From Acidobacteriota bacterium (GTDB lineage Bacteria > Acidobacteriota > UBA4820 > DSQY01), in contig JBMFSH010000002.1 in assembly GCA_049967655.1 (NCBI GenBank), forward strand, positions 112,718 through 176,717: 64,000 nt of DNA, read 5' to 3'. Positions 7,247 through 63,792 of this stretch are shown one piece after another. The position numbers and the translations under genes are program-made. Positions within the stretch are counted from its first letter, which is position 1. Each line of letters starts with the position of its first letter. The notes beneath the pieces were generated by a model that saw only the letters and a program-made list of their open reading frames with translations, made no database searches and was not told where the DNA came from.

Positions 7247-7443
7247 CGCCCCTCCCTCACAACAGGCCCGAGCCGGCCCACTCGCCGTGCTCGCGGAATG
7301 AGCATGATAAACCAGGGACAACCAAAAATGCAGGGTGAGGGCCACCCGGGGCCGGCCTCCGCAACCCGGCGGGGACGAGAGATCGAGCTCGTCTTCCTTG
7401 AAATCGGCTGGGCTTCTTGCTACCTTGGCGCAGCGGAGGCCCC

Positions 7444-8742: not shown

Positions 8743-9434
8743 GCCCCAAAATCCACCAAATCCGCGGGGCGGACCGCGGGCGCGGCCCCGCGCCGAAGAA
8801 GCCCAAGGCGGGCGCCGCTCCAATCCAGCCGCCGAAGGACAGCTACGGCGGCCAGAGGCGCGGACCCGCCGTCAAGGACGCCATCGGCCTTCTGGAGCTG
8901 ACTTCCATCGCCAAGGGGATCGAGGCCACGGACCTGATGCTCAAGGCCTCCGACGTGGAACTCCTGGCCAGCCGGTCCATCTGCTCTGGCAAGTACATGG
9001 TTCTGGTGCGAGGCGACGTGGCCGCCTGCACCTCCTCCGTGGCCGCGGGCGAAGAGGTGGCTCGGGAGGCCGTGGCCGACTCCATCGTGATCCCCCACCT
9101 CCATCCCGAGATCTTTCCGGCCATCGCGCAGGCCTCGCTTGTGGAGGAGGTGGCGGCGCTGGGCATCCTTGAATCCTTCAACGTGGCCAGCCTGATCGAG
9201 GGCGCCGACACCGCCGTGAAGTCCTCCGAGGTCCACCTGATCGAGATCCGCCTGGCCATGGCCCTGGGGGGCAAGGCTTTCTGCGTGCTCACGGGACAAG
9301 TGGCCGCCGTGCGCTCGGCCGTGGAGGCCGGCAAATCCGTGATCGGAGCCAAGGGCGCATTGACCAACTGGGCGGTCATCCCCTCCCCCGATCGCGCGCT
9401 CGTCAAGGAAATTCTGGGTGGCCGCCTGATCTAG
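8739..9434 (+). CDS. Tandem-BMC shell protein, PduT-like, with ~45-aa basic/Pro-rich N-terminal extension
   Basis: AIGLLELTSIAKG..DLMLKA, ICSGKY...GDVAA and a second BMC domain (ALGILESF, LAMALGGK, GQVAAV). ATGA overlap with the PduS-like gene. Confidence 0.88.
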   Translation: MSPKIHQIRGADRGRGPAPKKPKAGAAPIQPPKDSYGGQRRGPAVKDAIGLLELTSIAKGIEATDLMLKASDVELLASRSICSGKYMVLVRGDVAACTSSVAAGEEVAREAVADSIVIPHLHPEIFPAIAQASLVEEVAALGILESFNVASLIEGADTAVKSSEVHLIEIRLAMALGGKAFCVLTGQVAAVRSAVEAGKSVIGAKGALTNWAVIPSPDRALVKEILGGRLI

Positions 9435-9461: not shown

Positions 9462-10814
9462 ATGAGATCGAGCACCGTCCCGAACGGACCAACGGCCGGG
9501 GAAGGCCGGGCCTTTCCCCTCCTCCTCGTAGCTCTGGCTCTTTTCTCGACCTGCGCCGCCGTTGCGGCCCAGACCCCTCCGCCCGCTCCTCCCGAGAAGC
9601 AGATCACGGGGGTCATCACATCGAGCGGCTTCACCCAGCTCTCCATCGCCATTCCGCCGAGCAAGACGGAGGCCACGACGGCCGTCCAGGCCCAGGAGAT
9701 CCTCTCCACGGTGACGGGCGATCTCGAGTTCTCGGGCTACTTCCAGCTCGTGGACCCCTCCCTTTTCGCCGGGATGAATCCGAACGACACCAAGGTCGAC
9801 TACGATGCATGGACGGGGATGAAGGCGGACTATCTCCTCCTCACCAACGTCTACGCCTCCGGGAACCAGCTCACCCTCGAAGGCCGGCTCTATGACATCA
9901 AGCGGAAGGAGATGGTGACGGGCAAGCGCATCAAGGGGCCCGCCCAGGACGTGCGGGTCCTGGCCCACAACCTCTCCTCCGTGATCCTCGACTACCTCTT
10001 CGGCGCTGGGAGCTTCCCCACCAGCCAGATCCTCTTCACGTCGCACCTGGCCACCACCGAGGACATCTTTCTCTGCGACTACGACGGGAAGAACATCCTC
10101 CGCCTCACGGCCATGGGCCAGCTCAACGTGACCCCCGACGTGAACCCCCAGGGCAACCTCATCGTCTTCACCTCCATCCTGAAAGACAGGCAGGAGATCT
10201 TCCTGCTGGACCGCCAGGGGCATCGGAGGAAGCTCTACGGCGACGGCGAGGGACTCAACTCCAACCCGCGGTTCTCCCACGACGGCAAGACCGTGGCCTT
10301 CTGCTCTTCCCGGTCAGGAAACCCCGACATCTGGACCATCGGCGTGGACGGCAAGAATTTGACCCGGCTCACCTTCTCCTACGCCATCGACACCGCGCCC
10401 TGCTGGTCGCCCGATGACCAGCACATCGCCTTTACCTCCGATCGCTCCGGCTCTCCCCAGATCTATATCATGGACAGGGACGGCGCCAACGTGCGGCGGT
10501 TGAGTCCACCGGGCAGCGGGCGTTGCGATCAGCCCATCTGGTCTCCCCGCGGCGACAAGATCGCCTACAGTTGCTTCAAGGACGGCCACTTCAACATCGC
10601 CGTGGCGGACCTGACCACCGGCGAGGTCACCTTTCTCACCCACGGGGAGGGAGACAACGAGGCGCCCTCCTGGTCGCCCGACGGGCGGTACCTGGCCTTC
10701 GCCAGCAACCGCTCCGGAAGCTATCAGATCTACATCATGCGTTGGGACGGGTCGGGAGTGACCCGAATCACAAACCAGCCGGACTGCTATTCGCCCTGCT
10801 GGTTCAAGGGCTAA
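9462..10814 (+). CDS. tolB: Tol-Pal beta-propeller protein TolB
   Basis: Signal peptide, TolB_N (DLEFSGYF, RLYD) and PD40 repeats (WSPD, FTSDRSGSPQIY, PSWSPDG). Confidence 0.88.
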   Translation: MRSSTVPNGPTAGEGRAFPLLLVALALFSTCAAVAAQTPPPAPPEKQITGVITSSGFTQLSIAIPPSKTEATTAVQAQEILSTVTGDLEFSGYFQLVDPSLFAGMNPNDTKVDYDAWTGMKADYLLLTNVYASGNQLTLEGRLYDIKRKEMVTGKRIKGPAQDVRVLAHNLSSVILDYLFGAGSFPTSQILFTSHLATTEDIFLCDYDGKNILRLTAMGQLNVTPDVNPQGNLIVFTSILKDRQEIFLLDRQGHRRKLYGDGEGLNSNPRFSHDGKTVAFCSSRSGNPDIWTIGVDGKNLTRLTFSYAIDTAPCWSPDDQHIAFTSDRSGSPQIYIMDRDGANVRRLSPPGSGRCDQPIWSPRGDKIAYSCFKDGHFNIAVADLTTGEVTFLTHGEGDNEAPSWSPDGRYLAFASNRSGSYQIYIMRWDGSGVTRITNQPDCYSPCWFKG

Positions 10815-10963: not shown

Positions 10964-12652
10964 GTGATTACCAGCCTACGCCTGAAGGACTACGCCCTGG
11001 TAGAGGAGCTCGTGTTGGAGCCGGGGGGCGAGCTGTGCCTTCTCACCGGTGAGACGGGCGCGGGGAAATCCATCCTGGTGGATGCCGTGGGACTGCTCGC
11101 TGGCAACCGCGCCGAGACCGAGATGGTGAGAACCGGAGCCGAGGAGGCCGTGATCGAAGGCTCCTTCCGGCCCTCGCTGAAGGCCGCCGAGGTGGCCGCG
11201 CTCCTGCGGGGCTGGGATCTGGCCTTCGAGGGCGAGCTGGTGATCCGGCGCCGGATTCAACGCTCGGGAAGAAACACCGTGACCCTCAACGGCGCCGCCA
11301 TCACGCTGGCGCAGCTCCGCGAACTGGGCGCCCTCCTCGTGGAGATCCACGGGCAGAACCAGAGCCAGACGCTCCTCGACGAGGAGACTCACCGCCGCAT
11401 CCTCGACGCGTTGCCCTCGGTCTCCCCGGCGGCCGACGCGCTTCGCGCCGCGTCCACGGATCTCTCCCAGGCCCTGTCCCGGTGGCGGACGCTCAGCCGC
11501 AGCGAGGCGGAGAGGGCCCAGCGGCTGGACCTCCTCCGCTTTCAGATGGAGGAGATCGACCGGGTGGCCCCGAGGGCGGGCGAAGAGGAGGAGCTGCTGG
11601 CCTCCAAGAGTCGGCTGCAGAACGTGGAGCGCATCGCCGAGGCGGTCGGCTCGCTTCACCAGCTCCTCGCCGAGGGCGACCCCTGTGTGCGGGTGCTGCT
11701 GTCGGAGGCGACCCGATGGATCGAGGCACTGAAGGAGGTGGATCCGGATTGGGGGGGCTACCTCGCCGACCTCCGCCAGGCCTCCGGCGTGCTCTCCAGC
11801 ATCGCCTCGGAGGCGGAGCGGACCGCCTCTACCATCTCGTTTGATCCCGAAGCCCTGGAGAGAACCCTTCAGCGCCTCGCCGACCTGGACCGCCTCAAAC
11901 GCAAGTACGGCCCGACCCTCGATGACCTCCTCGCTCACCGGGCGAGCATAGGAGAAGAGGCGGCCCAGCTCTCCGGCGGCGAAGCCACCGCCGACGGGGC
12001 TCGCGAGCGAATCGAGGCCTCCTTCGCGGAGTACATGAGGCGCGCCCTGGAGCTCAGCTCCGCCCGCAAAGTCGCCGCCCTCGAGTTCGGCGGCGCCGTC
12101 GAAGCGGAGCTCAAGCCCCTGGCCATGGAGCGGGCTCGCTTCCTGGTTGAACTGGTCCCGCGTCCCGTGGGCCGAGCGGAGGAGGCTACGGAGGCAGGCC
12201 TGGAAGAGGTCCGGTTCCTCTTTTCGAGCAACCCCGGCGTGCCCCCCAAGCCTCTGGCCAAGATCGCTTCGGGCGGAGAGCTGAGCCGGACGCTCCTCGC
12301 CCTCCTCACGGCTACGAGGCAATGGATGGGTACCGACACGATCATCTTCGACGAGGTGGACGCGGGCATCGGAGGGCGGCCCGCCGAACGGGTAGGCAGG
12401 CGGCTTCGCAGGCTGGCCGAGCACCACCAGGTGCTCTGCATCACCCACCTGCCGCAGATTGCCGCGTTCGCCCACCAGCACATCATCATCGAGAAGGTTC
12501 AAACATCCAGGCGCACTTGTGTCACCGCCAGGACCCTCGGACCCGAAGATCGAGAGAGGGAACTGGCCCGGATGCTCGCCGGGGAGAGGATCCAGGAGAC
12601 CGCCCTGCGCCACGCCAGAACCCTGCTCGCCTCGGCCTCCGCTGCGGAGTAG
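10964..12652 (+). CDS. recN: DNA repair protein RecN
   Basis: LTGETGAGKSI, EIHGQ, KIASGGELSR, IFDEVDAGIGG and CITHLPQIA motifs. Confidence 0.97.
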   Translation: MITSLRLKDYALVEELVLEPGGELCLLTGETGAGKSILVDAVGLLAGNRAETEMVRTGAEEAVIEGSFRPSLKAAEVAALLRGWDLAFEGELVIRRRIQRSGRNTVTLNGAAITLAQLRELGALLVEIHGQNQSQTLLDEETHRRILDALPSVSPAADALRAASTDLSQALSRWRTLSRSEAERAQRLDLLRFQMEEIDRVAPRAGEEEELLASKSRLQNVERIAEAVGSLHQLLAEGDPCVRVLLSEATRWIEALKEVDPDWGGYLADLRQASGVLSSIASEAERTASTISFDPEALERTLQRLADLDRLKRKYGPTLDDLLAHRASIGEEAAQLSGGEATADGARERIEASFAEYMRRALELSSARKVAALEFGGAVEAELKPLAMERARFLVELVPRPVGRAEEATEAGLEEVRFLFSSNPGVPPKPLAKIASGGELSRTLLALLTATRQWMGTDTIIFDEVDAGIGGRPAERVGRRLRRLAEHHQVLCITHLPQIAAFAHQHIIIEKVQTSRRTCVTARTLGPEDRERELARMLAGERIQETALRHARTLLASASAAE

Positions 12653-12757: not shown

Positions 12758-12922
12758 TGAATGTCATTTTTCCGCCACGAGAGGAGTCTGCTCGCAATTC
12801 CCCGGGAGGCGGCATGAGGAAGGCCCATGGATCAAAGACCATCCCCATCAACCCGTGACCCGGCCTTGCACCGTGAGCGGAGACCCGGACCGATAAAACG
12901 CAAGCCGGGCTCGGAGGAAATC

Positions 12923-15900
12923 ATGGAACAGATCAAAGGACGAGCGGGCACGGAGTTTCGGTGTCTGCTGCTGGCGTTGGCTTGCCTTCCCCTTCTGCAC
13001 GCCATTCCCGCGCGCGCCTCGGGGTCAACGCCCCTTTCCGCCCAGGCGGGCCCGCGGCTGGAGAAGGCCTTTGGAGCTATCCCGCTGCATTTCGAGCCCA
13101 ACCGGGGGCAGAGCGATCCTCGGGTCGAGTATCTCGCCCGCGGGCGCGGCTTCGGCCTCTACCTCACCAGGAGGGGGGCGACCCTCGTCCTGAGCGCGCC
13201 GACAGGCGAGTCGGCGCGGGGCTCCCGGCGGCCTCCCCGGGATACCCGCCCGCATGTCCGCTCCACGATCCGCATCTCTCTGGAGGGCGGCAATGCGGCT
13301 CCCGCGCTGGTGGGCCTCGACCGCCTCGCCGGCACCTCCAGCTACTTCCTGGGGAACGACCCCTCGCGGTGGATTAGGGCCATCCCCACCTTCGGGCGCG
13401 TCGCCTGCAAGCAGGTCTACCCGGGCGTGGACGTGGTTTACTACGGGGCCGGAAGGGCCCTGGAATACGATTTCCAGCTTGCCGCGGGGACGAATCCCCG
13501 AACGATCAGGCTCCGGTACGACGACGGGGCGGGGAACCCCGTCCCCTTGCGGGTCAGCCCCAGCGGTGATCTCCTCCTCTCGACTCCCTTCGGTCGGCTC
13601 GTCCAGCACGCCCCCGCCGTCTTCCAAATGCGGAACGGGGAGAAGAACATGCTCTCCGGCCACTACGAGATCCTGGGACCGGGGCGCGTGGGACTGGTCG
13701 TGGCCAGTTACGACGCCTCTCGCCCGCTGACCATTGATCCAATTCTTAGCTACTCCACCTACCTGGGCGGCAGCGGCCAGGATCAGGCGGCGGGCATTGC
13801 GGTGGATTCCAACGGGAACGCCTACGTGACCGGCTCCACGCAGTCCACCGATTTCCCCCAGGCCAGCGATGCGCCGAGCGGAGGATGGGACGCCTTCGTG
13901 ACCAAGTTCTCTCCGGACGGCAAGAGCCTCCTCTACTCCATCTACTTCGGGGGGAAGGGGGATGACCTGGCCCACGCCATCGCCGTGGACTCCTCAGGTG
14001 ACGTGACCATCGCCGGCCAGACCACCTCCTACGACCTGCCCGTCCTCAAAGCGTTCCAGCCCACCCACGCGGGGACCGCGAGCTCTGCTAACGAGGATGC
14101 CTTCATCGCCGAGTTCGGCCCCTCCGGCACGGCGCTTCTCTATTCTTCTTACCTGGGCGGCTTCGGGGATGACGTGGCCACGGCCGTAGCCCTCGATGCC
14201 GCAGGCGATGCTTTCGTGACGGGGTACACCTATTCACCCGATTTCCCCGCCTCTTCGAACGCCGACCAGCCGGCCTACGGTGGCGCCGGCGACGGGTTCC
14301 TTTCCGAGGTGGCAGCGGGCGGGAACAAGCTCCTCTACTCCAGCTTCCTGGGGGGCGAAGCCTACGACGAGGGGCGGGGCATCGCGGTGAGCACCGACGG
14401 CCACGTGTTCGTCACGGGCGACACCTCGTCGGTCGCCTTCCCCATTCTCAACGCCTATCAGGCCCAGCTCGCTGGAGCCAGCGACGCCTTCGTCAGCGCC
14501 TTCGATTTCAGCGGTGCCACCGGCACCAGCCCCGGTCAGGTGATCTACTCCACCTACTTGGGGGGCGCCGGCAGCGACGCCGGCCTGGCCGTCGCCGCCG
14601 ACGCGAGCGGGGACGCTTACGTAACGGGCTACACCTATTCGACTCACTTTCCAACCAGCCCCGGCGCCTACCAGAGGGCCCTCACCGCCGGCCAATCGGC
14701 CGACGCCTTCGTAACGGAGTTTTCGCCGACGGGCGGCTCCCTGGTCTACTCCACCTACCTCGGGGGTTCGGCCTTTGATGCCGCCTACGCCATTGCCTTG
14801 GCCAGCGACGGAAGCGCCTGCGTGGCCGGGGATACCTATTCCACCGACTTCCCGGTGGCATTCCCCGTCCAGGCGGCCAACGCCAGCGCCTCCGCCGGCA
14901 ACAGCGACACCTTCGTGAGCAAGTTGTCGCCTTCTGGCTCGGCCCTCTCCTTCTCGACCTATCTAGGCGGAAGCGACACGGACCAGGGCCGCGCCATCGC
15001 CCTGGATTCCTCCAACAACATTTACGTGGCAGGGACCACCTACTCCAGCAACTTCCCGATGCAGAACGCCTTTCAGAGCGTCTCCCACGGAGCGGGGGAC
15101 GCCTTCGTTTCCAAGATCCTTCTGGCCGGCTGTACCCTCACCTGCACCGCCGTGGCCTCACCCGGCACCGGTGCTGCCCCTCTCCCCGTCACCTTTTCGG
15201 CTACCGCTACCCCGAGTAGCTGCGGAAGCGGCACCGTGGCCTACGACTGGAATTTCGGCGACGGCACACCCCACGCAAGCGCGCCGAATACCAGCCACAC
15301 CTACCTCCAGCCGGGGAGCTATACCTGGACGCTGACCGTGAGCCTCGACGGCACCACTTGCACCCAGAGCGGCTCCATCGTGGTCACCCCCGGCTGCACC
15401 GTGAGCTGCTCGGCCAACGCCACCCCCACGGCGGGTCCGGCGCCGCTGGCCGTGGCTCTCACCGCTTCCGCCTCCTCCTCGGACTGCGGAGGGGCCGCCA
15501 CCTACCTCTGGAACTTCGGTGACGGCTCGGCCGCTTCCACGGCGCAGAACCCGAGCCACACCTACCTTCAGCCGGGCACCTACACCTGGGCCGTGACGGC
15601 CACCATCGCCGGCAGCACCTGCACCCAGAGCGGCTCGGTGACGGCGCTGGCGACCCCGGGAAGCCTTTCGGGCATGGTGGCCATCTCCGCGGGAGACCAG
15701 TTCTTCTCCCTCGACGGGCCCGGCATCGTCTCGGGCACGGTCACGGCGGTGGACTCCGCGGGCAACGCGACGACGGCGCCTCTGTCGGGAGGCCACTTCT
15801 CCTTCTCGGGGCTCGCCCAGGGGAGCTACCAGCTCACCGCCACGGTGACCTACACGGACAACGTCCTCTACGACGCCGATCTGCTGAGCTACGGTTGTAC

Positions 15901-18643
15901 GGCGCCTTCGGGCATGCAGATTCAGAAGACGGCCATCTCTGCGCCGGTCGCCGTGGACACCTCCAATACCGCCTACGTGGTGGTCTCCTTCCCGCCGCCG
16001 CTGGTCATGATTCACGGCATGTTCGACTGCTACCAGAAGTGGTACGACCCCAACGCCTCGGACTCCAACGCCGCCCTTTACTGGGACAACGACGCGAGGG
16101 CCCACGGCCTCATCAGCTTCACGCCGAACTACGCCTGGTGGGGAGGGATCTCGAGCTGGCCCACCATGGCCGACGAGGTGGCCCAGCAGATCGGGCAGGA
16201 CCTCTCGGGACTGAGCTCCAGCGGCGCGGGAACGGGCTCCGCAGTCCCGCCCATCCCCACCGTCTGGATCGCCCACGACATGGGGGGCCTCGTGGCACGG
16301 GTGCTGGCCTCGGGGGACCACCGGAACGACGTGCTGGTGCAAAACGTCTGGAAGATTTACCTGCTCGGCGTGCCCAACAGCGGCACGAACCTCCAGCTGG
16401 CGGGGAGCGACAACGGCACCCTGAGCACCGACACCATCCTGCGGCGCTTCAACGCCGTCTATCCCGACTTCGGGAGCCTTCAGGGCCGGGTCTACGCCAT
16501 CGCCGGGGACAGCGGCCTGTGGGGGCTCCAGAACGATGACGGGCTGGTCTCTCTGGCCTCGGCCTTCACCATCTCGCGGGAGCTGTGCACCACGACCTTC
16601 GGCTACCCCGTCTGCCAGCAGTACCCCGCCGTCAGCTTCGCCGCCGGGACCGGCCACATCTTCGGTTACAGCCACGCCGATCTGGGCGGCCCCGCCTCGG
16701 CGAAGGCCATCCTGGAGGGGGTCATCCTGCCCGGCGTCGCGGCGCTGGCCAAGAGCGGGCCGCTTCCGGAACACGTGCCGGAGAGTCCCGCGGGCACTAC
16801 GGTCTGGGGCACCACCAGCCGCACGTCGGGAACCAAGAGAGGGCGCATCAAGGCCACCCTCAGCCGCTCGGAGGCGGGCCAGTCCTTCTCCTACCCGTTT
16901 ACCATCGGAGAGACCGACGGCATGGCCCTGCTGGCCACGGTCACCGACGGCTCCGCCGCTTTCCAACTGCTCGACCCCACGGGCCAGGTGGCGCAGAGCA
17001 GCCCCTCGGTGGACGGCCTCTTCTCCTTCTCCACCCTCAACCCGGCCCCGGGCGCCTGGACGCTCGTCGTAACCCCCGGCGGCTCGGGGGTCTCCTTCAC
17101 CGCCACGGCGCAGGAGGACAGCCCCTTCGGCATCCGCGGGAGCCTGGATGAGAGTGCCTATCTCCCCAACTCCACGGCGGTCCTGAGGGTGGACCTCGAG
17201 GGCAGCCTCAAGGTGGTGCCCGCCTCGGTGACGGCCAGCATCTACGACGGCTACGACAACCTGATCGAGACCGTTCCTCTTTATGACGACGGCCAGCACG
17301 ACGACGGCGCTCCGGGCGACGGCGCCTACGGTGCCCTCCTCGCCGCCTTCACGTCGCCCGGCTCTTACCCCGTCGTCTTCACCGCCACCGGCTCCTACCA
17401 GGGCGAGGCCTTCTCCCGTCTCGCCTTCGCCACCCTGACGGTGGTGCCCTCCACCCACCTGCTGACGGGCGCCTTCGCCCTTTCGCCCGTGAGCCAGAGC
17501 GGCGGGGGCCCCACGGACGCCATCCAGATGACCGCCGGCGTCAACCTGCCGGCGGCGGGGAGCTACGCCCTCTCGGCGGACCTGCTGGATGCGGGGGGCC
17601 TCTTCGTGGCCCACGCCTCCACGGCGCTCACGGCCACGGCGGCGGGCCTCACAACCGCGACCCTGGTCTTCCCGCTGGACGGCGCCACGTGCAGCCAGCT
17701 CGATGCCCCGCTGACGGTGGCCGGCCTTCAGGTCCTGGATGGAACCACCCTGACGCCCGAGGACGTCTGGGGTTCTCCCATCTACACCCCTGCCTACCCC
17801 TCCGGCACCTTCTCCTGCCAGAGCGGTACCCCCGAGCCCACGCCCACGGCTCTCCAGCCCTCCCAGGCCGTGACGGGCACCTCCATCAGCCTGCTGGTGG
17901 CGGGCACCGGCTTCCAGGGCGGCGCCACGCTCACCTTCGATTCGGGCATTCAGGTCAACAAGGTCATCGAGCTCTCGCAGAACCTCCTTTCGGCCTCCGT
18001 CACCGTCCTTTCGAACGCGGCTGCGGGCGGCCACACGCTGACCGTCACCAACCCCAACGGCACTTCGGGGAACCTGGTCTCGGCCCTGACGGTCACGCCG
18101 AACCAGCCGCCCGCCGTCACCCTCTTGACCCCCGCCAGCGGAACGAGCTACTTCAGCTCCTCCCCCACCCAGGTGAGCGTCTCGGCCTCCGCGAGCGACG
18201 ACATCGGAGTCACCCAGGTGGTCTTCCTGCTGGACGGAGCGCCCGAGGCCAGCGTGAGCCAGTTCCCGTTCATCTGGAGCTTTCCCTCCTCCGTTCTGAC
18301 CCACGGCGCCCATACCCTGACGGCCGTGGCCTACGACACCAGCGGCCTGACCGCCCAGGCCTCCGTGACCATCTACAAGGACCCGCCCACCGTCACGGCC
18401 ATCAGCAAGCTGATCAACCCCTTCCGCCTGAAGGTCACGGGGACCAACTTCCTCCCGGGCCTCTCGGTCACCATCGGGAGTGACACAACCCCCTGGCCCG
18501 GCGTGACCGTCAAATCGGACACCAAGCTGATCCTCAAGAAGGGGGCCCGCCTCAAGGCGCTCTTCCCGAAGGGGCAGGCCGTGTCCATCCGCATCGCCTA
18601 CCCCGATGGCACGCAAGGAACGGCCAGCTACACCAGGCCCTGA
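12923..18643 (+). CDS. Large secreted protein (1906 aa): SBBP beta-propeller repeats, 2 PKD domains, alpha/beta-hydrolase domain, Ig-like domains
   Basis: GGAGG RBS before ATG 12923 and a signal peptide ending IPARA. FEPNRGQ and YPGVDVVY N-terminal domain, repeated YSTYLGG/DAFV units, two WNFGDG PKD domains, MIHG...AHDMGGLVAR...LLGVPNSG...NDDGLV...SH hydrolase, LYDDGQHDDGAPGDG motif and Ig-like tail. Confidence 0.92.
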   Translation: MEQIKGRAGTEFRCLLLALACLPLLHAIPARASGSTPLSAQAGPRLEKAFGAIPLHFEPNRGQSDPRVEYLARGRGFGLYLTRRGATLVLSAPTGESARGSRRPPRDTRPHVRSTIRISLEGGNAAPALVGLDRLAGTSSYFLGNDPSRWIRAIPTFGRVACKQVYPGVDVVYYGAGRALEYDFQLAAGTNPRTIRLRYDDGAGNPVPLRVSPSGDLLLSTPFGRLVQHAPAVFQMRNGEKNMLSGHYEILGPGRVGLVVASYDASRPLTIDPILSYSTYLGGSGQDQAAGIAVDSNGNAYVTGSTQSTDFPQASDAPSGGWDAFVTKFSPDGKSLLYSIYFGGKGDDLAHAIAVDSSGDVTIAGQTTSYDLPVLKAFQPTHAGTASSANEDAFIAEFGPSGTALLYSSYLGGFGDDVATAVALDAAGDAFVTGYTYSPDFPASSNADQPAYGGAGDGFLSEVAAGGNKLLYSSFLGGEAYDEGRGIAVSTDGHVFVTGDTSSVAFPILNAYQAQLAGASDAFVSAFDFSGATGTSPGQVIYSTYLGGAGSDAGLAVAADASGDAYVTGYTYSTHFPTSPGAYQRALTAGQSADAFVTEFSPTGGSLVYSTYLGGSAFDAAYAIALASDGSACVAGDTYSTDFPVAFPVQAANASASAGNSDTFVSKLSPSGSALSFSTYLGGSDTDQGRAIALDSSNNIYVAGTTYSSNFPMQNAFQSVSHGAGDAFVSKILLAGCTLTCTAVASPGTGAAPLPVTFSATATPSSCGSGTVAYDWNFGDGTPHASAPNTSHTYLQPGSYTWTLTVSLDGTTCTQSGSIVVTPGCTVSCSANATPTAGPAPLAVALTASASSSDCGGAATYLWNFGDGSAASTAQNPSHTYLQPGTYTWAVTATIAGSTCTQSGSVTALATPGSLSGMVAISAGDQFFSLDGPGIVSGTVTAVDSAGNATTAPLSGGHFSFSGLAQGSYQLTATVTYTDNVLYDADLLSYGCTAPSGMQIQKTAISAPVAVDTSNTAYVVVSFPPPLVMIHGMFDCYQKWYDPNASDSNAALYWDNDARAHGLISFTPNYAWWGGISSWPTMADEVAQQIGQDLSGLSSSGAGTGSAVPPIPTVWIAHDMGGLVARVLASGDHRNDVLVQNVWKIYLLGVPNSGTNLQLAGSDNGTLSTDTILRRFNAVYPDFGSLQGRVYAIAGDSGLWGLQNDDGLVSLASAFTISRELCTTTFGYPVCQQYPAVSFAAGTGHIFGYSHADLGGPASAKAILEGVILPGVAALAKSGPLPEHVPESPAGTTVWGTTSRTSGTKRGRIKATLSRSEAGQSFSYPFTIGETDGMALLATVTDGSAAFQLLDPTGQVAQSSPSVDGLFSFSTLNPAPGAWTLVVTPGGSGVSFTATAQEDSPFGIRGSLDESAYLPNSTAVLRVDLEGSLKVVPASVTASIYDGYDNLIETVPLYDDGQHDDGAPGDGAYGALLAAFTSPGSYPVVFTATGSYQGEAFSRLAFATLTVVPSTHLLTGAFALSPVSQSGGGPTDAIQMTAGVNLPAAGSYALSADLLDAGGLFVAHASTALTATAAGLTTATLVFPLDGATCSQLDAPLTVAGLQVLDGTTLTPEDVWGSPIYTPAYPSGTFSCQSGTPEPTPTALQPSQAVTGTSISLLVAGTGFQGGATLTFDSGIQVNKVIELSQNLLSASVTVLSNAAAGGHTLTVTNPNGTSGNLVSALTVTPNQPPAVTLLTPASGTSYFSSSPTQVSVSASASDDIGVTQVVFLLDGAPEASVSQFPFIWSFPSSVLTHGAHTLTAVAYDTSGLTAQASVTIYKDPPTVTAISKLINPFRLKVTGTNFLPGLSVTIGSDTTPWPGVTVKSDTKLILKKGARLKALFPKGQAVSIRIAYPDGTQGTASYTRP
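13750..15120 (+). repeat. Intragenic SBBP (beta-propeller) repeats, about 7 units
   Basis: Recurrent YSTYLGGxGxD..A.AVD..G.AYVTG.T.S.DFP....DAFV units. Boundaries approximate. Confidence 0.8.
15131..15660 (+). repeat. Tandem PKD-domain duplication
   Basis: Two copies of C..C.A.A.P..G.APL.V...WNFGDG...SHTYLQPG.YTW....G.TCTQSGS. The DNA segments agccacacctacct and tgcacccagagcggctc occur in both. Boundaries approximate. Confidence 0.85.
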
Positions 18644-18668
18644 GTCTTCGTAATCTCACCGATGCAGA

Positions 18669-18698
18669 GGGGCGGCCTCCAGGCCGCCCCCCTTCTTC
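18669..18698 (+). terminator. Probable intrinsic terminator after the large secreted protein gene
   Basis: GGGGCGGCC-TCCA-GGCCGCCCC hairpin followed by ccttcttc. Confidence 0.6.
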
Positions 18699-18712
18699 AT
18701 CCCCCCGAAGGT

Positions 18713-18864
18713 GTCACCCTGAGATCACCCCCCAGAGGGCTCCCCGGAAAGGGCCTCAGGCGTGGAACCCGCAGAAACCGCCGTGAAGGCTCCGCTGGCG
18801 TTTTGCCTAGACCAGCGCCTGAGGTCCTTCAGGGGCACTGCTTCGAAGGGGCCTTCAGGATGAC
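18713..18864. repeat. ~150-nt rod-like imperfect palindrome (REP/MITE-like element or structured RNA)
   Basis: Nested inverted repeats: GTCACCCTGA/TCAGGATGAC, AAGGGCCTCAGGCG/CGCCTGAGGTCCTT and GCAGAAACCGCC/GGCGTTTTGC. Confidence 0.6.
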
Positions 18865-18900
18865 GGGAAAGCGGACGGGCGGATCGGGAGCGGATCTCCC

Positions 18901-18936
18901 TTGACAAGACGTGGGGGGGGGGGGGGGTGGTAGCCT
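18901..18936 (+). promoter_or_regulatory. Sigma70-type promoter with a G15 tract in the spacer
   Basis: Perfect TTGACA at 18901-06, G15 at 18913-27, extended -10 TG-G-TAGCCT at 18928-36. Spacer is 24 nt. Confidence 0.65.
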
Positions 18937-18962
18937 GGAGCCGTCTTGAAAGGAGGTGTTCG

Positions 18963-19040
18963 ATGGGCACGATCCTCTTCCTCATCACGGTCCTGGTCTG
19001 TTCTCCTGCCGGCGGCACTATCTGGGGCACGACGACCTGA
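18963..19040 (+). CDS. 25-aa small peptide MGTILFLITVLVCSPAGGTIWGTTT
   Basis: Below the ORF-track length cut-off. RBS AAAGGAGGTG (18949-58), upstream promoter, downstream hairpin, GC-rich third positions, and a 9/12 match to a motif in the neighbouring large protein. Confidence 0.8.
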   Translation: MGTILFLITVLVCSPAGGTIWGTTT

Positions 19041-19057
19041 ACGGCACCGGGATCCGA

Positions 19058-19093
19058 AGCCCAGGGGGGCCCAGGCCGGGTTTCCCTGGGGCT
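19058..19093. terminator. Hairpin between the convergent peptide and cyclase genes
   Basis: AGCCCAGGG-GGGCCC-aggcc-GGGTTT-CCCTGGG(G)CT stem-loop with G-U pairs on the + strand. Confidence 0.5.
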
Positions 19094-19106
19094 CTTCCCT
19101 CCCGTG

Positions 19107-22100
19107 TCATCCCGCAGGCCCCTCGGCCCGAAGCGCCCGCACCTCCGGGAGAGCGGCCAGGGCTTTTCGGATGGCTGGGTCGCTGTTTCGCGCTTCCACC
19201 TCTTTCAACAGATCCAGCGCGGCTTTCCGCCAAAAAGCGGCGCTTCTCGCCTTTCCGCTGTTCATCGCGGCTAGCCGCCGGAGCATGCGGTACCTGATTC
19301 CCATGAGGCCCCGGTCCAGTTTGGGACCATAGGGCCTCAGGAGAGCCATCAGAGAGGCAAGGTACTCTTTGTCGTTGCTGGCGATGGCGACTTGGGCCAC
19401 CGTGAGCAAGAGCGGGGCGACTTTCAAGACCGAGCGATGCTTCGCTACCTCTGGTAGGAGCCGCCGTGCGATCGCGGCAGCAACTTCATGGCGGCCTGCC
19501 TCCCATAGAGAGCGAACCAGGGTCTCCCCCACCTCGGCCGTGAGCCAGAGGGTCCCGGTCAGGGAGGCCTCCTCCAGACATCGCTCCAGGGCCTCCCTCG
19601 CATCTTCGAAGCCAGTGTCTCCCATGAGATGGAGCCAGAGAGCCCGTTGCGCGCGAAAGCCGATGGACCAGGCCTTTTCAGTGTGAACGAGCTCCGCCGC
19701 CACGACCGGGCTGCCCTCCTCCATGGCGGCAAGGGCCAGCTCTGGCCGATGCAGGTGGTTCGCCAGCGCCACGATTTCATTGAGGCAGGCGAGAGCCTCT
19801 CCCGTGTTGCCTCCCTGCACGTGAAGGCGCATGGAATCGGTCTGATTCTCCAGGGCCATTTGCAGATGCCCGCTCACAGCGTGAAGAATGCCTGAAGTAT
19901 GGAGGTTCGCGGCACAATAATGCTGCATACCGAAATGAAGCGCTGTTGCGAAAGCCAATCTGCTCGCCTCCATAGCTTCATCCCACTGGCCGAGCATGGT
20001 CTGGTAGAGAGCGCGGTTCGACAGCAGAACCACATACAACTGACGGTAGCCAAACTGTCTGGCAATTACTGTAGCTTCCTCTACCATACCGAGCGCCTTC
20101 CGGTAGCGCCCCTCCTCGAAATGAACCTGGGCAAGGTTGATCGAAAGGGAGACCAGGTTCGGCCGAAGGGCGTAGCGCTCCGCCGTCCGGCGCGCTTTCC
20201 GGTAGGCGGAAGCCGCCGCCCCGAGATTGCCCCAACCATGGTAGTGGCACATGCCTTGGTTCATCAGCGCGTACACCAAGGAGCTACCCTCAGCCAGCTT
20301 CCTAGCGAGACGCTCCGCCTGTTTGAACTGCTCCATGGCCTCGTCCATGCGGCCTGACATGGCCAACGGAACGGCCGAATCCAAGAGGATCCGGCATCGA
20401 AGCTGGTCGTCCCCCAGCTTCTTCGCTAGGCTCATGGCCCGGTCATATTCCTGGATGGACGCATTGAGCTCGCCACGGCTTCGATGACATCCTGCCACGT
20501 GCATGCGTGCATCCACGAGCTCGGGGCATAGTGTGCCGGTCTCCTGGATGATCTGGCGGCATCTGGCTTCGGTCTCGTCCAATCTTCCCAAGTCCTTGCT
20601 TGTCTTGGCGAGCTCCATTAGGCCTCGACGATACTGTTCGTCCTCGCCGGCCGAGACGCCGTGCTTCTCTCGCAGTCGGATGTATCGCTCCAATAGGTTG
20701 AACGCCGCGCCGTTGTCGTAGCGGTTGCGGGCGTCCTGGGCGGCGAGCCAGAGGTAGTGGGCGGCTTTCACGTCGTCGCCGGCGGCCTCGAAGTGGTGGG
20801 CTAGGTAGGGCCACGTCCGGCGGTCGCCGGCGGCCTGCTCCTCCAGGAAAGCGGCGACCTGGGCGTGCACGGCCCGCTTGACCGAGAAGGTGAGCGACTC
20901 GTAGAGGGCATCGCGCAGGAGCGAGTCGGAGAAGGTGGCGTAAGGGCGGCGCCCCGAGGCGTCCAGGCGCAGGAGCCCCTTCTCCGAGAGGGCCCTCACC
21001 CGCCCCTCGACGTCAAGCGCCTTCAGCCCCAGGACCCTGGCCAGCAGGCTGACGGAGAAGGAGGCGCCTAGCACGGAAGCCGTCTTCAGAAGCTGGCGCT
21101 CCTGATCGGGAAGGCCCTCGACCTGGGTCAGGAGCACGCCCTCGAGGGTGTCCGGGAAGGCCGAGGCCGTCAGGCGGTCCTCGTCCGCCTCGAGGAGCCC
21201 GGAGGGGCCCCGGGCCAGAAGACCCTGGTGGGCCAGCACGGCCAGCACCTGCTGGATGAACTTGGGGTTGCCCCGCGTCTTCTCCATGACGAAGCGGGTG
21301 AAGGCCTCGGGGGGCGCGGCCATGCCGCCGGCCCGCATCAGGAACTCGCGCGCCTCCTCCTCGCTCAGCGGTTCGAGGCGGACCGTCCGAAGGCCGGCCA
21401 CCGCCTCTCCCACCGACGCGGGGGCGCTGGTGCGAAAGGCCAGGAGAAGCTTGAGAGGGGCCTGCTCCAACTCGGCCAGAAGGGCCGCCAGGAACTCCAG
21501 CGAGGCGGGATCGGCGTGCTCCAGGTGGTCCACGAAGAGGCCGTACGGCTCCTGCGCGGCCTGACGCAGGAAGAGCCGGGCCAGCATGGCGAAGGCGGCC
21601 TCCTTGCGCTCCTTGGCAGAGAGGGCCTTGACGGCGGCCGTCTCCTCCATGGCGACACCCAGGAGGGGCGCCAGGAGGCAGAGGAAATCCGGGTCCTCGT
21701 GAGCCATCCCCTGCCGGAGGGCCTCGAGGCGCAGGGCCTCGCCGGAGGTGCGGCTCACGCCCAGAGAGGAGAAGAGCACCGGCGTCCAGGCCGAGAGGTA
21801 GCTCTCGCTGCTGTAGGGGACGAGCGGCACCGTGATGTGGCGGATTCCCGCCGCATCCAGCCCCAGCCCGAGCCGGTGCAGGAGGGCGCTCTTCCCGACC
21901 CCGGCCTCCCCCGTCACGGCCAGCGCCAGAGGCTTCGACGGATCGGCCAGGAGCGGTCCCAGCTCCTTGAGCAGCTCCTCCCGCCCCACGTACTCCGCCA
22001 AGCGCTCCTCCTCCGCCTGCCGCTCGCCCTCGGGCCTGAAGACGCGCACCCGCTCGCCGATGCCCTTGACGAAGACGGGGTCCAGCTCTCGGAAGACAAG

Positions 22101-23291
22101 CGCCCCGTCGGCCTCTGCGGCCACCTCCCTGGCGACCAGGACCCGCCAGGCGTGGGCGTTCTGCATCAGTCGGGCCGCCAGGTTGATGCCGGCGCCCATG
22201 ACCGTGTACTCCCGCCGCTCCTCGCAGCCCACGAAGGCCGCGAAGAGCCCGGAGACGGTGATCCCGATGCGGACCTCGGTGAGGAGTTCTCGCAGAGCGG
22301 CAGAGCCGACCAGCTCCAGGGCCGCCCGGCAGGCCATCTCCTCCTGGCGCTCCAGGGCGTAGGGAACGCCGAAGCAGCAGATCGCCTTGCTCCCCTTGTC
22401 GCCCATGTCCAGCTTGTTCACGTGGCCGCCGTACTTTCGAACCGTTTCGGCGATGATCCGGTAGACCCGGCGGCAGCGGTCCACCGCTTCGGAGTCGAGG
22501 TCGTAGTCGATGCCCCGGAAGGCGAGGAACAGGACCGCCGTCCGCCGGTGTTCGGCGACGGTCTGGCTGCGGCCTGTCCCAGCCCTGGCTCGGACGAAGG
22601 CTGGGAGGAAGGCTTCGAGACTCTCCCGGCTGGGTAACGGCGGGCTGGCGTTGGCGGAAGGTTCGGGAGGCCGGTGAAGCCCATCGAAGCCCGCGAGAAG
22701 CAGGAAGCCGTCGCCGGCCTCCTCCACCCGGCAGCCGATCGGGAGGCCGGCCCGGCAGGAAGGCCCCAGGAGGATCCGCCCCCGCGAGGCGCGGTGCTCC
22801 GCCTCCGCCGCCTCGTCCAGGGCCGTGCCGGCGGCGAAGTAGTCGCGTCCGACCTCCTGGTCACCCACCGTACCGATCAGGAGGGAGCCGATGGAGATGC
22901 CCGTCTTCATGGCGAGCGAGAACTCGCCCCCGCGGGTGGGAATGGACTGGAAACGGCCGATCTCCTCGTGCATCCGGAGTGCGGCCCGCAGCGCCCCCGA
23001 CAGGTCCGGAGGGAAGAATAGCGTCATCGCATCGCCACCGAATCGGAGAACGTCTCCGCCCTCCTCGTGGACGATCGCGATCATGGCCGCGAAGAAGTCG
23101 TTCAGAACGCGGGTGAGCTCCTCCGCCCCCTCCCTCCCGATGGCCGCCAGCCGCTCGGTCATGGCCGTAAAGCCGGCCAGGTCAGCGAAGAGCAGGCATC
23201 CCTCCGTCCGCTGGGCACCCCCCGTGGAGCCCAGGAGAGGCCACAGACTCCTCGGCACGAAGGCGGTCAGATCCCGTCTGAAATTGCTCAT
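19107..23291 (-). CDS. Tandem class III adenylate cyclase - STAND NTPase - TPR protein (soluble AC/ADCY10-like architecture)
   Basis: C1: LFADLAGFT..RFGGDA. C2: VNKLDMGDKG..EYTVMGAGINLAARLM. YVGREE, Walker A GEAGVGKS, Walker B FVDHLEHAD, TRGNP, then a TPR-like helical C-terminus. Confidence 0.92.
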   Translation of the reverse strand: MSNFRRDLTAFVPRSLWPLLGSTGGAQRTEGCLLFADLAGFTAMTERLAAIGREGAEELTRVLNDFFAAMIAIVHEEGGDVLRFGGDAMTLFFPPDLSGALRAALRMHEEIGRFQSIPTRGGEFSLAMKTGISIGSLLIGTVGDQEVGRDYFAAGTALDEAAEAEHRASRGRILLGPSCRAGLPIGCRVEEAGDGFLLLAGFDGLHRPPEPSANASPPLPSRESLEAFLPAFVRARAGTGRSQTVAEHRRTAVLFLAFRGIDYDLDSEAVDRCRRVYRIIAETVRKYGGHVNKLDMGDKGSKAICCFGVPYALERQEEMACRAALELVGSAALRELLTEVRIGITVSGLFAAFVGCEERREYTVMGAGINLAARLMQNAHAWRVLVAREVAAEADGALVFRELDPVFVKGIGERVRVFRPEGERQAEEERLAEYVGREELLKELGPLLADPSKPLALAVTGEAGVGKSALLHRLGLGLDAAGIRHITVPLVPYSSESYLSAWTPVLFSSLGVSRTSGEALRLEALRQGMAHEDPDFLCLLAPLLGVAMEETAAVKALSAKERKEAAFAMLARLFLRQAAQEPYGLFVDHLEHADPASLEFLAALLAELEQAPLKLLLAFRTSAPASVGEAVAGLRTVRLEPLSEEEAREFLMRAGGMAAPPEAFTRFVMEKTRGNPKFIQQVLAVLAHQGLLARGPSGLLEADEDRLTASAFPDTLEGVLLTQVEGLPDQERQLLKTASVLGASFSVSLLARVLGLKALDVEGRVRALSEKGLLRLDASGRRPYATFSDSLLRDALYESLTFSVKRAVHAQVAAFLEEQAAGDRRTWPYLAHHFEAAGDDVKAAHYLWLAAQDARNRYDNGAAFNLLERYIRLREKHGVSAGEDEQYRRGLMELAKTSKDLGRLDETEARCRQIIQETGTLCPELVDARMHVAGCHRSRGELNASIQEYDRAMSLAKKLGDDQLRCRILLDSAVPLAMSGRMDEAMEQFKQAERLARKLAEGSSLVYALMNQGMCHYHGWGNLGAAASAYRKARRTAERYALRPNLVSLSINLAQVHFEEGRYRKALGMVEEATVIARQFGYRQLYVVLLSNRALYQTMLGQWDEAMEASRLAFATALHFGMQHYCAANLHTSGILHAVSGHLQMALENQTDSMRLHVQGGNTGEALACLNEIVALANHLHRPELALAAMEEGSPVVAAELVHTEKAWSIGFRAQRALWLHLMGDTGFEDAREALERCLEEASLTGTLWLTAEVGETLVRSLWEAGRHEVAAAIARRLLPEVAKHRSVLKVAPLLLTVAQVAIASNDKEYLASLMALLRPYGPKLDRGLMGIRYRMLRRLAAMNSGKARSAAFWRKAALDLLKEVEARNSDPAIRKALAALPEVRALRAEGPAG

Positions 23292-23433: not shown

Positions 23434-24219
23434 TCAGGGATTGGGCGGCGGAGGGGATCCCGAGACCGATTGCGTGTAGGCCAGCAGGAACCGCCTGGCC
23501 TCGGGGTTCATTTCCAGAAAGACGATTCCGTAACCGGCCCTGGTCTTCCGCACCACGCGGGCCTTGAATTCCACGACCTTGAGCGGTACCGTTCCCGGCA
23601 TCCCCACGCGCAGGCTGACCATGGCCTTGTGCGGAAGCTCTTCAACCAGCGCCACTTGGGCTCCGGTCAAAGAGATGTCGCGGAGCACCCCGCGCAGCTT
23701 CTGCCCTCCGCCCGACAGCAGGCATGCGGCCTGGAGGTTGCGCCGCGGCGCCCTTCGCAGGTCCCAGCTCGCGGAGCCTTCATCGGTCTGGCTTTCTACC
23801 AAGCCCGGGGGAGGCGGCCCCGGGGGCGGCTTGCGGGGGGTTTCCGCATGGAGGTTGCCCAGGAGATGGACCAGCGAGCTTTCCAGCTGGTTCCTCCGGA
23901 CGGGCTTGGTCAGGACGATGGTGTGGCACCCCGTCGACGCCTCCACGTTCATCCCCTCTTCCGTGAGAATGAGGACGGAGAGGTCACCAAAGGCGGCCTC
24001 GGAGCGGAGCGCGCTCAGCATCCGAAAGCCCCCGACGGTGGGAAGCGAGAAGTCGATCACCAGAAGGTCGGGGGGGCCCGAGAGATACATGGCCTGGATG
24101 GCCGACATGTCGCTCGCGAAGACCTGGCAATTCAGGCGCGCGCCGCCCAGCCCCTCGAAGGGATCGGTGAAAAGCGACAACTCCGCTTCGGCCAGAACGG
24201 CCGACACTCGGTACGACAT
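23434..24219 (-). CDS. Receiver-like domain + PilZ domain protein
   Basis: PDLLVIDFSLP..GG and LTKPV (receiver-like). RRAPR and DISLTG are intact PilZ c-di-GMP-binding motifs. Confidence 0.82.
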   Translation of the reverse strand: MSYRVSAVLAEAELSLFTDPFEGLGGARLNCQVFASDMSAIQAMYLSGPPDLLVIDFSLPTVGGFRMLSALRSEAAFGDLSVLILTEEGMNVEASTGCHTIVLTKPVRRNQLESSLVHLLGNLHAETPRKPPPGPPPPGLVESQTDEGSASWDLRRAPRRNLQAACLLSGGGQKLRGVLRDISLTGAQVALVEELPHKAMVSLRVGMPGTVPLKVVEFKARVVRKTRAGYGIVFLEMNPEARRFLLAYTQSVSGSPPPPNP

Positions 24220-24346
24220 CTGTCCCCGCCCTGCTGGGCCGCCCATCTAGACGATGCGGCAACCCATCCGTTCCTTAATGCCGTCTTATTTTATCACGGG
24301 CGGCGCGGGGAGGGAACGGGACGAGGCCGGCCGGCAAAACCCGATG

Positions 24347-61363: not shown

Positions 61364-63792
<2,429 letters not shown>

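Follow-up and report, generated by a model that had tools for sequence, protein, structure and literature searches.

MicroProteins are very small proteins that are related to a piece of a larger protein and can occupy its interaction site. In the RNPP pairs (PlcR-PapR, NprR-NprX and Rap-Phr), a pro-peptide gene lies by the gene of a regulator with tetratricopeptide repeats (TPRs), and the C-terminal part of the pro-peptide carries the specificity. The enterococcal pheromone cCF10 derives from the lipoprotein CcfA, and phase-variable promoters with a poly-G tract are known from Neisseria. According to the available text of PMC5552905, iCF10 is encoded by prgQ, and iCF10 and cCF10 bind the same domain of PrgX. 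Fragments of larger proteins have been described as inhibitors (PMC11831152, available text), and in the vlp promoters of Mycoplasma hyorhinis, which hold a poly-A tract, homopolymer slippage is an established switch (PMC10502178, available text). Here we describe a micro-ORF (a very small open reading frame) at positions 18963–19040 of a 64,000-nt stretch of an Acidobacteriota genome (contig JBMFSH010000002.1, positions 112,718–176,717, forward strand; the whole stretch is called the window below). The end of its predicted peptide repeats a 12-residue motif from a linker of the giant secreted protein encoded next to it, and the micro-ORF is very probably, judging from comparison of sequences, a real and selected peptide gene tied to that motif.

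As in the cCF10/iCF10-PrgQ system of Enterococcus faecalis, the C-terminus of a tiny ORF's peptide resembles a peptide inside a larger secreted protein. In contrast to that system, the host is a Gram-negative acidobacterium, the motif lies in an interdomain linker and not in a signal peptide, and the receptor is only a candidate, being a cyclase-STAND-TPR protein where PrgX is a helix-turn-helix (HTH) repressor; the order within the micro-peptide is also reversed, with a hydrophobic N-terminal and a polar C-terminal end. Like the pro-peptide genes of RNPP pairs, the micro-ORF adjoins the 3' end of the gene of a TPR protein, and its C-terminal motif has variable positions that co-vary with the partner. 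TPRs are thus present in the candidate receptor, but its effector part consists of two class III cyclase domains and a STAND ATPase instead of an HTH or phosphatase domain; further differences from RNPP pairs are that the peptide has no signal peptide with a charged n-region, that no importer is encoded nearby and that the motif is found in a third, secreted protein as well. With microProteins the micro-peptide shares its homology to a module of a larger protein, as the 12-residue match is conserved and co-varies by genus. MicroProteins and inhibitory fragments are, however, mostly eukaryotic or engineered and copy folded domains, whereas here a natural bacterial micro-ORF joins a 12-residue disordered motif to a hydrophobic half. 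As at contingency loci, the −35 and −10 hexamers are set apart by a homopolymer whose length varies from strain to strain, and with it the spacing of the hexamers; those loci belong to host-associated pathogens and serve surface antigens, whereas here the host is an environmental acidobacterium, the product a 25-aa peptide and the switching a prediction, in a genome where G-runs after the −35 box are common. The large protein has the order alpha/beta-hydrolase, linker, beta-sandwich, and a beta-sandwich likewise follows the catalytic domain in BlEst2 (6wpx) and Tk-SP (3afg). To go by the deposition title for BlEst2, the linker is a maturation site in enzymes of its type. Unlike in BlEst2 and Tk-SP, the nucleophile position holds Asp, the template modelling (TM) score is only 0.27–0.31, and those enzymes are not known to have a small mimic ORF. 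That a small peptide can mimic part of a larger protein is known in principle, but this implementation is not; no published description of such a combination of micro-ORF and linker motif was found in the literature.

The micro-peptide and its match in the large protein

The features that bear on the match are:

12827–18643, + strand: gene for the giant secreted multidomain protein, 1938 aa from the first ATG
15998–16756, + strand: PGAP1/DUF676/lipase-like alpha/beta-hydrolase domain of that protein, with elbow AHDMGG
16760–16876, + strand: predicted disordered linker (predicted local distance difference test, pLDDT, below 50), from the last hydrolase helix to the next beta-sandwich
16784–16819, + strand: linker motif SPAGTTVWGTTS, consensus [STAG]-P-x-G-x3-W-G-T-x2
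18963–19040, + strand: micro-ORF, with an uncharged hydrophobic half, Cys13-Ser-Pro and a copy of the 12-residue linker motif
19107–23291, − strand: cyclase-STAND-TPR gene, 1394 aa, with two class III cyclase domains, a STAND/AAA_16 ATPase and TPRs

The micro-ORF comprises 25 codons from ATG to TGA, and its coordinates and translation, MGTILFLITVLVCSPAGGTIWGTTT, reproduced those of the initial annotation, which had been made from the letters of the window. Residues 1–12 of the predicted peptide are hydrophobic and are followed by Cys13 and by the copy of the linker motif, which fills residues 14–25 up to the stop codon. These last 12 residues match SPAGTTVWGTTS at residues 1320–1331 of the large protein with nine of 12 identical plus one I/V and one T/S exchange, exactly as first noticed, and the differing codons for shared residues (AGT/TCT, CCC/CCT, GCG/GCC and ACC/ACG, large gene/micro-ORF) were likewise found again. 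The best ungapped BLOSUM62 score between the peptide and the large protein is 55, a value reached by none of 1000 shuffled peptides (maximum 46) and by none of 3000 random genomic ATG ORFs of 20–40 aa (maximum 50). The genome-wide motif search that had been proposed covered the 3.14-Mb genome (67% G+C) in all six reading frames and found the strict motif exactly twice, both times at this locus. The match exceeds chance, and its retention in relatives settles the point.

None of the six micro-peptides from the six records that carry the ORF contains a charged residue, and all copies follow a common plan, with an uncharged hydrophobic half, an invariant Cys-Ser-Pro, four or five variable residues, WGT, two further residues and the stop. 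The initial annotation had seen in the first half a hydrophobic leader, possibly that of an exported signal. The hydrophobic half is there, but no canonical signal peptide is: only a stretch resembling an h-region was found, and none of the six peptides has the charged n-region of a Sec-type signal peptide. The lipobox consensus is [LVI][ASTVI][GAS]C, and a canonical lipobox with a charged n-region is not present either, as the residues ahead of the Cys are VLV in the window's own genus and FTV and FIG in two members of a second genus, with no Lys or Arg; a lipoprotein reading was rejected on both counts. We also rejected a leader resembling a threonine attenuator, given that the peptides of the second genus hold only three Thr and that no gene follows on the same strand. 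A likeness of the hydrophobic half to the helix preceding the linker (GVILPGVAALAKS compared with GTILFLITVLVC) was seen by eye only and is not significant. From its composition the micro-peptide is inferred to be membrane-associated, through a membrane-seeking hydrophobic half.

The absence of any described family, noted at the outset, held in the searches: no Pfam or NCBIfam family matched the micro-peptide at E-values up to 10, and the literature had none. The 58-aa stop-to-stop frame around the window's micro-ORF has no counterpart among 5.8 billion database proteins, which is weak evidence of absence because gene callers skip ORFs this small.

Conservation, distribution and the relation of the two motif copies

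The six records carrying the micro-ORF are the window genome, G001 and G002 in one genus of Thermoanaerobaculia (Acidobacteriota), here g1, and G017, L061 (a 430-kb metagenome contig) and G021 in another, here g3. The large proteins of the two genera are about 46–48% identical, and the micro-ORF sits in the same spacer in both, inverted in g3. The small ORF is therefore one that relatives conserve, across two genera. Its peptides are MGTILFLITVLVCSPSGGVVWGTTN in G001, MCTILFLITVLVCSPSGGVVWGTTS in G002, MLSFTIAALVFTVCSPVMGAIWGTGA in both G017 and L061, and MVSITIAVLVFIGCSPVGASIWGTGA in G021. All six records keep the ATG, the upstream AAGGAGGTG, Cys-Ser-Pro, WGT and a stop two codons after WGT, and the difference in length between g1 and g3 is one whole codon. 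The cassette of promoter and micro-ORF is homologous between the genera and lies on the strand of the large gene in g1, on the strand of the cyclase gene, directly past its stop, in g3.

A DNA search with the pattern C-[ST]-P-x5-W-G-T matched the spacer after the large gene in five of the 29 genomes of the order and gave one extra, unrelated match elsewhere in G001. With a stop required two codons past WGT, six of 401 genomes of the phylum matched; five of these are the loci described here, and the sixth, G029, ends in TGG, which is not a stop. A reversed-pattern control over the same 401 genomes gave one match. Between G017 and G021, 20 of the 81 bases of the micro-ORF differ without any insertion or deletion, compared with 40 of the next 60 nt, and the codon differences were counted by hand as seven synonymous and eight non-synonymous. 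Contigs from public metagenomes that span the micro-ORF (four runs) carry substitutions and no insertion or deletion within it; in five public DNA runs, only a small share of the sequence words (0.05–0.07) was present.

Motif position 1 is informative on the history of the two copies. Where the large gene has Ser there (15 of the 22 motif rows listed) it is always encoded by AGY, and in all six micro-ORF records it is encoded by TCN. Because these codon classes are fixed, the two copies represent old, separate lineages. Recent duplication or gene conversion was rejected on the same fixed difference and on the DNA identity of the copies in the window, only 24 of 36 bases; the earlier proposal of similarity at the protein level, with no recent DNA duplication, is supported. 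The micro-ORFs of g1 agree with the large-protein motifs of g1 at 8–10 of 12 residues and with those of g3 at 6–8, and the micro-ORFs of g3 agree with the motifs of g3 at 6–12 and with those of g1 at only 5–6. The copy of G021 is identical at 12 of 12 residues to the large-protein motif of L065 and at 11 of 12 to that of G013. The differences sit at motif positions 3, 11 and 12. In these two lineages, the copies do track each other at genus level, which the initial annotation had suggested checking.

That annotation had also asked whether the small ORF, the large protein and the cyclase occur together. Large gene and cyclase gene do so throughout the order; the micro-ORF does not, being found in four of 17 records with a complete spacer as well as in G017 and G021, where the contig stops at the G tract. 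As it is patchy even within its own genus, it is an accessory element and no core gene.

Such patchiness, with clean absence in close relatives, would suit a functionless relic, that is, an old partial duplication of the linker or an ORF riding a conserved promoter and terminator element and kept by chance. Open frames are cheap at 67% G+C, and the promoter spacing is out of register in the window, both of which would fit as well. Nevertheless, a relic is improbable, as start, Shine-Dalgarno (SD) sequence, frame, Cys-Ser-Pro, WGT and stop position have been kept, despite the inversion, across genera whose large proteins are less than 50% identical, and the micro-ORF is more conserved than its flanks. 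The Ser is retained while its codon class differs, and the motif copies co-vary by genus.

Expression signals, the G tract and the spacer

The spacer between the large gene and the cyclase gene holds the following elements besides the micro-ORF:

18901–18936, + strand: promoter-like region, with TTGACA (18901–18906), G15 (18913–18927), TGG and TAGCCT (18931–18936)
18949–18958, + strand: SD sequence AAAGGAGGTG, conserved as AAGGAGGTG in both genera
19043–19108, no strand: strong hairpin (−41.1 kcal/mol, z −2.1), overlapping the cyclase stop codon
18669–18690, + strand: G+C-rich terminator-like hairpin just past the large gene, with the same hairpin after the orthologue of the second genus
18700–18880, no strand: dispersed repeat resembling repetitive extragenic palindromes or miniature inverted-repeat transposable elements (REP/MITE), inserted between the large gene and the cassette and outside the latter

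The ribosome-binding site and the downstream hairpin of the initial annotation were both recovered; AAAGGAGGTG is separated from the ATG by four bases (TTCG), and the hairpin at 19043–19108 is probably a bidirectional terminator. The annotation's claim of a separate promoter held in part, as TTGACA and TAGCCT are present but lie 24 nt apart and a consensus promoter scan found no site. With these elements, the micro-gene is predicted to have expression signals of its own.

Between the −35 and −10 hexamers lies a homopolymer (TTGACA-N6-G15-TGG-TAGCCT in the window), and the same layout was found at four loci from the two genera. In both genera, TTGAC(A/G), a poly-G tract and TA(G/C)CCT are followed by 20–26 nt, including the SD sequence, up to the ATG. 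The tracts are 15 (window), 13, 9 and 31 nt long and set the hexamers 24, 19, 15 and 35 nt apart, so that the tract is polymorphic between relatives in these four assemblies, as in a contingency promoter. A tract shorter by 6 nt was seen in one public contig; other contigs, like two genome assemblies, are broken at this point. This layout suggests phase-variable expression, predicted from the DNA: slippage in the poly-G tract would shift the promoter spacing and switch the peptide on and off stochastically.

Only three G or C runs of at least 12 nt were found in the genome, one of them at a contig end. On contig C47, TTGACA-N6-G16-TAATCT (11934–11949, − strand) precedes a small peptide gene (74 aa, double-glycine leader, Cys-rich core); on contig C11, TTGAAA-A9G11-TATATT (62482–62492) precedes another (68 aa, signal peptide, Cys-rich region). 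Promoters with long tracts ahead of genes for small secreted peptides may form a class of tract-switched peptide genes.

Seen beside those Cys-rich, bacteriocin-like peptides, the micro-peptide could be taken for a small hydrophobic toxin or bacteriocin-like peptide, of the type I toxin or leaderless kind, with an incidental likeness to the neighbour. It is very small, uncharged and hydrophobic, with a strong SD sequence and a promoter of its own, and its presence is patchy in the manner of a cassette. We regard this as very improbable. Unlike a mobile toxin, the micro-ORF is always found at one locus beside one gene family, it encodes no cationic residue, and neither an antisense RNA partner nor an immunity gene was seen; the motif match and the co-variation with the neighbour by genus would also be left unexplained.

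Position between two convergent genes with strong hairpins, a long G tract that could form a quadruplex and an antisense frame about as conserved as the sense frame might instead indicate an RNA or DNA element (a small RNA, a G-quadruplex or a bidirectional terminator) that controls the convergent genes, with no peptide involved. An Rfam search of 18400–19400 yielded no family at threshold, only four microRNA or small-RNA matches (E 0.095–0.73) far below the gathering score. The element is inverted from one genus to the other, leaving no constant antisense target, and a match in protein space through different codons is not expected of an RNA, which makes such an element extremely improbable.

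The REP/MITE-like repeat is present in one to six tandem copies in the same spacer of G001–G003. Its 45-nt core (about 18820–18865) is scattered over many contigs of relatives, including a genome of another family (G028, 16 matches), and contig depth in the public runs peaks at the repeat.

The large protein, the cyclase and the proposed role of the peptide

The length of 1906 aa first given for the large protein holds when counted from Met33 (12923), which is followed by a signal-peptide-like N-terminus. The protein comprises DUF7948, SBBP propeller repeats, two PKD domains, the lipase-like domain, beta-sandwiches, a choice-of-anchor X domain and Big_7. Its homologues do conserve the linker motif, all 20 orthologues compared, which come from five genera and from metagenomes, having P, P, G, W, G and T in it unchanged. 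Two AlphaFold models place the motif between the last alpha/beta-hydrolase-like helix and a beta-sandwich, in the lowest-confidence segment of each (residues 319–349 of 533 and, in a model with a mean pLDDT of 77, residues 398–426 of 1024; pLDDT below 50 in both). As the motif belongs to no predicted fold, the trans-complementing beta-strand once considered for the peptide is unlikely; the invariance of the motif within such a linker fits the other early suggestion, a recognised ligand or a processing site.

The sandwich past the linker matched the C-terminal jelly-roll of the subtilisin Tk-SP (3afg; profile E 1e-5), and the best Foldseek match for the stretch of hydrolase, linker and sandwich was the propeptide form of the lipase BlEst2 (6wpx; E 9e-10), at the low TM score given above. 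The deposition title of 6wpx calls the enzyme inhibited by its C-terminal domains. The domain ahead of the motif has an alpha/beta-hydrolase fold and family resemblance, its ten nearest Atlas clusters being PGAP1, DUF676, Lipase_2 and Abhydrolase (scores 0.92–0.94); no Pfam hydrolase model matched it at threshold. The nucleophile Ser of the G-x-S-x-G elbow is replaced by Asp1151 (16277–16279) in AHDMGG, and the elbow position is Asp or Glu in 14 of 14 orthologues (alignment A1). A Ser-type paralogue has the elbow AHSMGG and no linker motif.

In a profile search over 1.84 billion library representatives, the 18 best all carry the motif, and the elbow could be located in 16 of them (15 Asp, one Gly and no Ser). 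The representatives that rank next have no motif, and Ser stands at the elbow in all 14 of them that matched over the full length and whose elbow could be located; one more match, a 273-aa Asp-type fragment, ends ahead of the motif region. The Ser-to-Asp change is thus perfectly associated with the WGT linker motif among these representatives, and the motif, a linear one that is invariant and lies in a linker predicted to be disordered, is coupled to an altered active site. The domain itself would be either a pseudo-enzyme or an enzyme with an Asp nucleophile. The triad-like Asp and His are invariant despite the Asp (Glu or Gly in a few relatives) at the elbow. The C-terminus of the large protein is also conserved, as ...[ST]YTRP-stop in two genera and ...VWQ[RW]-stop in others, and may be a sorting or secretion signal.

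The coupling of motif and Ser-to-Asp change would also suit a membrane tether, in which the peptide anchors the giant protein either by docking of its motif in the Asp-type domain or by a disulfide from its Cys. This Cys stands directly ahead of the motif and is invariant in six of six records, and cysteines are available in the lipase-like domain (C77 invariant, C33, C263 and C272 nearly so; alignment A1). The name of the choice-of-anchor X domain implies proteins with varied anchors. Anchoring is nonetheless quite improbable, since many genomes lack the peptide yet conserve the large protein, which presumably functions there, and the AlphaFold models predict no docking in cis.

Wherever a record extends downstream of the large gene, the cyclase gene lies there as its convergent neighbour, over five genera and at 37–80% identity. 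The pairing is specific, as the Ser-type paralogues without the motif have no cyclase neighbour and the cyclase gene is single-copy. Where present, the micro-ORF always lies between the two genes; in the window, it ends 67 nt from the cyclase stop codon. With neither a signal peptide nor a membrane segment, the cyclase is cytoplasmic. The convergent pair (12827–23291) is kept throughout the order although its flanks are rearranged, and convergent genes are not co-transcribed.

Upstream, the genes for a bacterial microcompartment (BMC) protein, a TolB-like protein and RecN are syntenic only within g1, and for this reason the motif was dropped as a ligand, in the manner of a TolB box, of the TolB-like protein (9462–10814). 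Directly upstream of the TolB-like gene, an RnfC/Nuo51-like gene with flavin mononucleotide and 4Fe-4S sites is followed by a tandem-BMC shell gene (7417–9434), which resembles part of a microcompartment locus in unusual surroundings. Beyond the cyclase, on the same strand, a receiver-PilZ fusion response regulator is encoded at 23434–24246, syntenic in g1, and may act downstream in reading nucleotide signals.

The constancy of the pair leads to the question of whether the micro-peptide, perhaps together with a fragment released from the linker, is a ligand of the TPR sensor of the cyclase and tunes cyclic-nucleotide output, which would make it a Gram-negative counterpart of the pairs of TPR receptor and pro-peptide and of the enterococcal pheromone and inhibitor. 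That iCF10, encoded by prgQ, and cCF10 both bind PrgX (PMC5552905, available text) gives this a precedent. Large gene and cyclase gene are neighbours order-wide while upstream synteny is confined to g1, the motif-less Ser-type paralogues lack a cyclase neighbour, the cyclase gene is single-copy, and the micro-ORF is always at the 3' end of the cyclase gene, in g3 on its strand right after the stop. The variable motif positions change non-synonymously, like pherotypes, and the cyclase TPRs resemble the peptide-binding TPRs of Pins/LGN, weakly (E 0.002). A complex prediction of cyclase residues 640–1394 with a 37-residue linker segment scored 0.02. The cyclase, however, is cytoplasmic and the large protein secreted; a canonical export signal is missing from the peptide, and no gene for a peptide importer lies nearby; most genomes with the gene pair have no micro-ORF; and the effector is a cyclase, neither an HTH nor a phosphatase domain. 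A role as cyclase ligand is, on balance, fairly unlikely.

One step further, the secreted protein with its WGT motif and pseudo- or Asp-type lipase, the cyclase-STAND-TPR protein and a phase-variable micro-peptide could form one joint module, a new signalling system in Thermoanaerobaculia. The motif would then be the signal that the large protein releases or displays, the micro-peptide a switchable agonist or antagonist, and the Ser-to-Asp change would mark the lipase-like domain as a processing or binding site of the motif. By analogy, the pair would be a Gram-negative counterpart, coupled to cyclic nucleotides, of the enterococcal pheromone and inhibitor. A joint module of this kind is distinctly unlikely.

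We favour mimicry of the linker motif of the large protein. The micro-peptide, in or on the membrane, would show [ST]P-x-G-x3-WGT-xx with a free end and so offer the recognition motif of the linker to whichever factor reads the linker of the large protein. Such a reader would most likely act in maturation or retention, in separating or docking the lipase-like head and the stalk of C-terminal beta-sandwiches and Ig-like domains, and either a processing enzyme or the Asp-type domain itself could fill this part. The micro-peptide would then serve as a decoy, a competitor or a substitute docking site, and slippage in the G tract would make it a decoy that is switched stochastically. Taken whole, with a decoy mechanism acting on maturation or retention of the large protein, this proposal is tentative and still somewhat doubtful, unlike the very probable existence of the peptide gene.

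Several observations weigh against motif mimicry or parts of it. The micro-ORF is known from sequence alone, its transcription and translation being inferred, and it left no trace in G003 and L060 of g1 (large proteins 82–89% identical), is absent from the g3 members G005, G009, G013 and L065 (spacer 31–84 nt) and is absent from all other genera examined in the order. Co-variation of the copies by genus rests on two lineages only. The hydrophobic stretch of 12–13 residues (or about 21 uncharged ones) is short for a transmembrane helix, with no charged flank to set its orientation, and in two AlphaFold models the linker is docked nowhere in cis. At the amino-acid level the sense and antisense frames are conserved to about the same degree (18 of 26 and 18 of 28 residues, respectively, between G017 and G021, hand count). 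The synonymous and non-synonymous differences are therefore by themselves a weak signal, and what speaks for the sense frame is its start, SD and stop signals together with the match to the neighbour in protein space. As for the switch, tract lengths from short-read assemblies are unreliable, the spacing of 24 nt as assembled is non-functional, and the scan of the window found zero promoter-like sites because the G15 tract sets the hexamers that far apart. Shorter G-runs after TTGACA also precede a tRNA gene in this genome; such runs are a general promoter trait here, and the tract therefore need not be a switch.

Very small genes are routinely missed in bacteria, and this micro-ORF is below the limits of gene callers; the search logic, in which tiny ORFs are sought whose products repeat an invariant disordered motif of an adjoining gene, could be used genome-wide. 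If motif mimicry is true, the locus would be a natural bacterial example of something known mainly from eukaryotic microProteins and one Gram-positive pheromone system. The defined 12-mer gives a handle on a pairing that is order-wide and uncharacterised, between the giant secreted lipase-like protein of Asp type and the STAND cyclase, and the G tracts raise the possibility that small secreted peptides are switched by homopolymer tracts in free-living Acidobacteriota.

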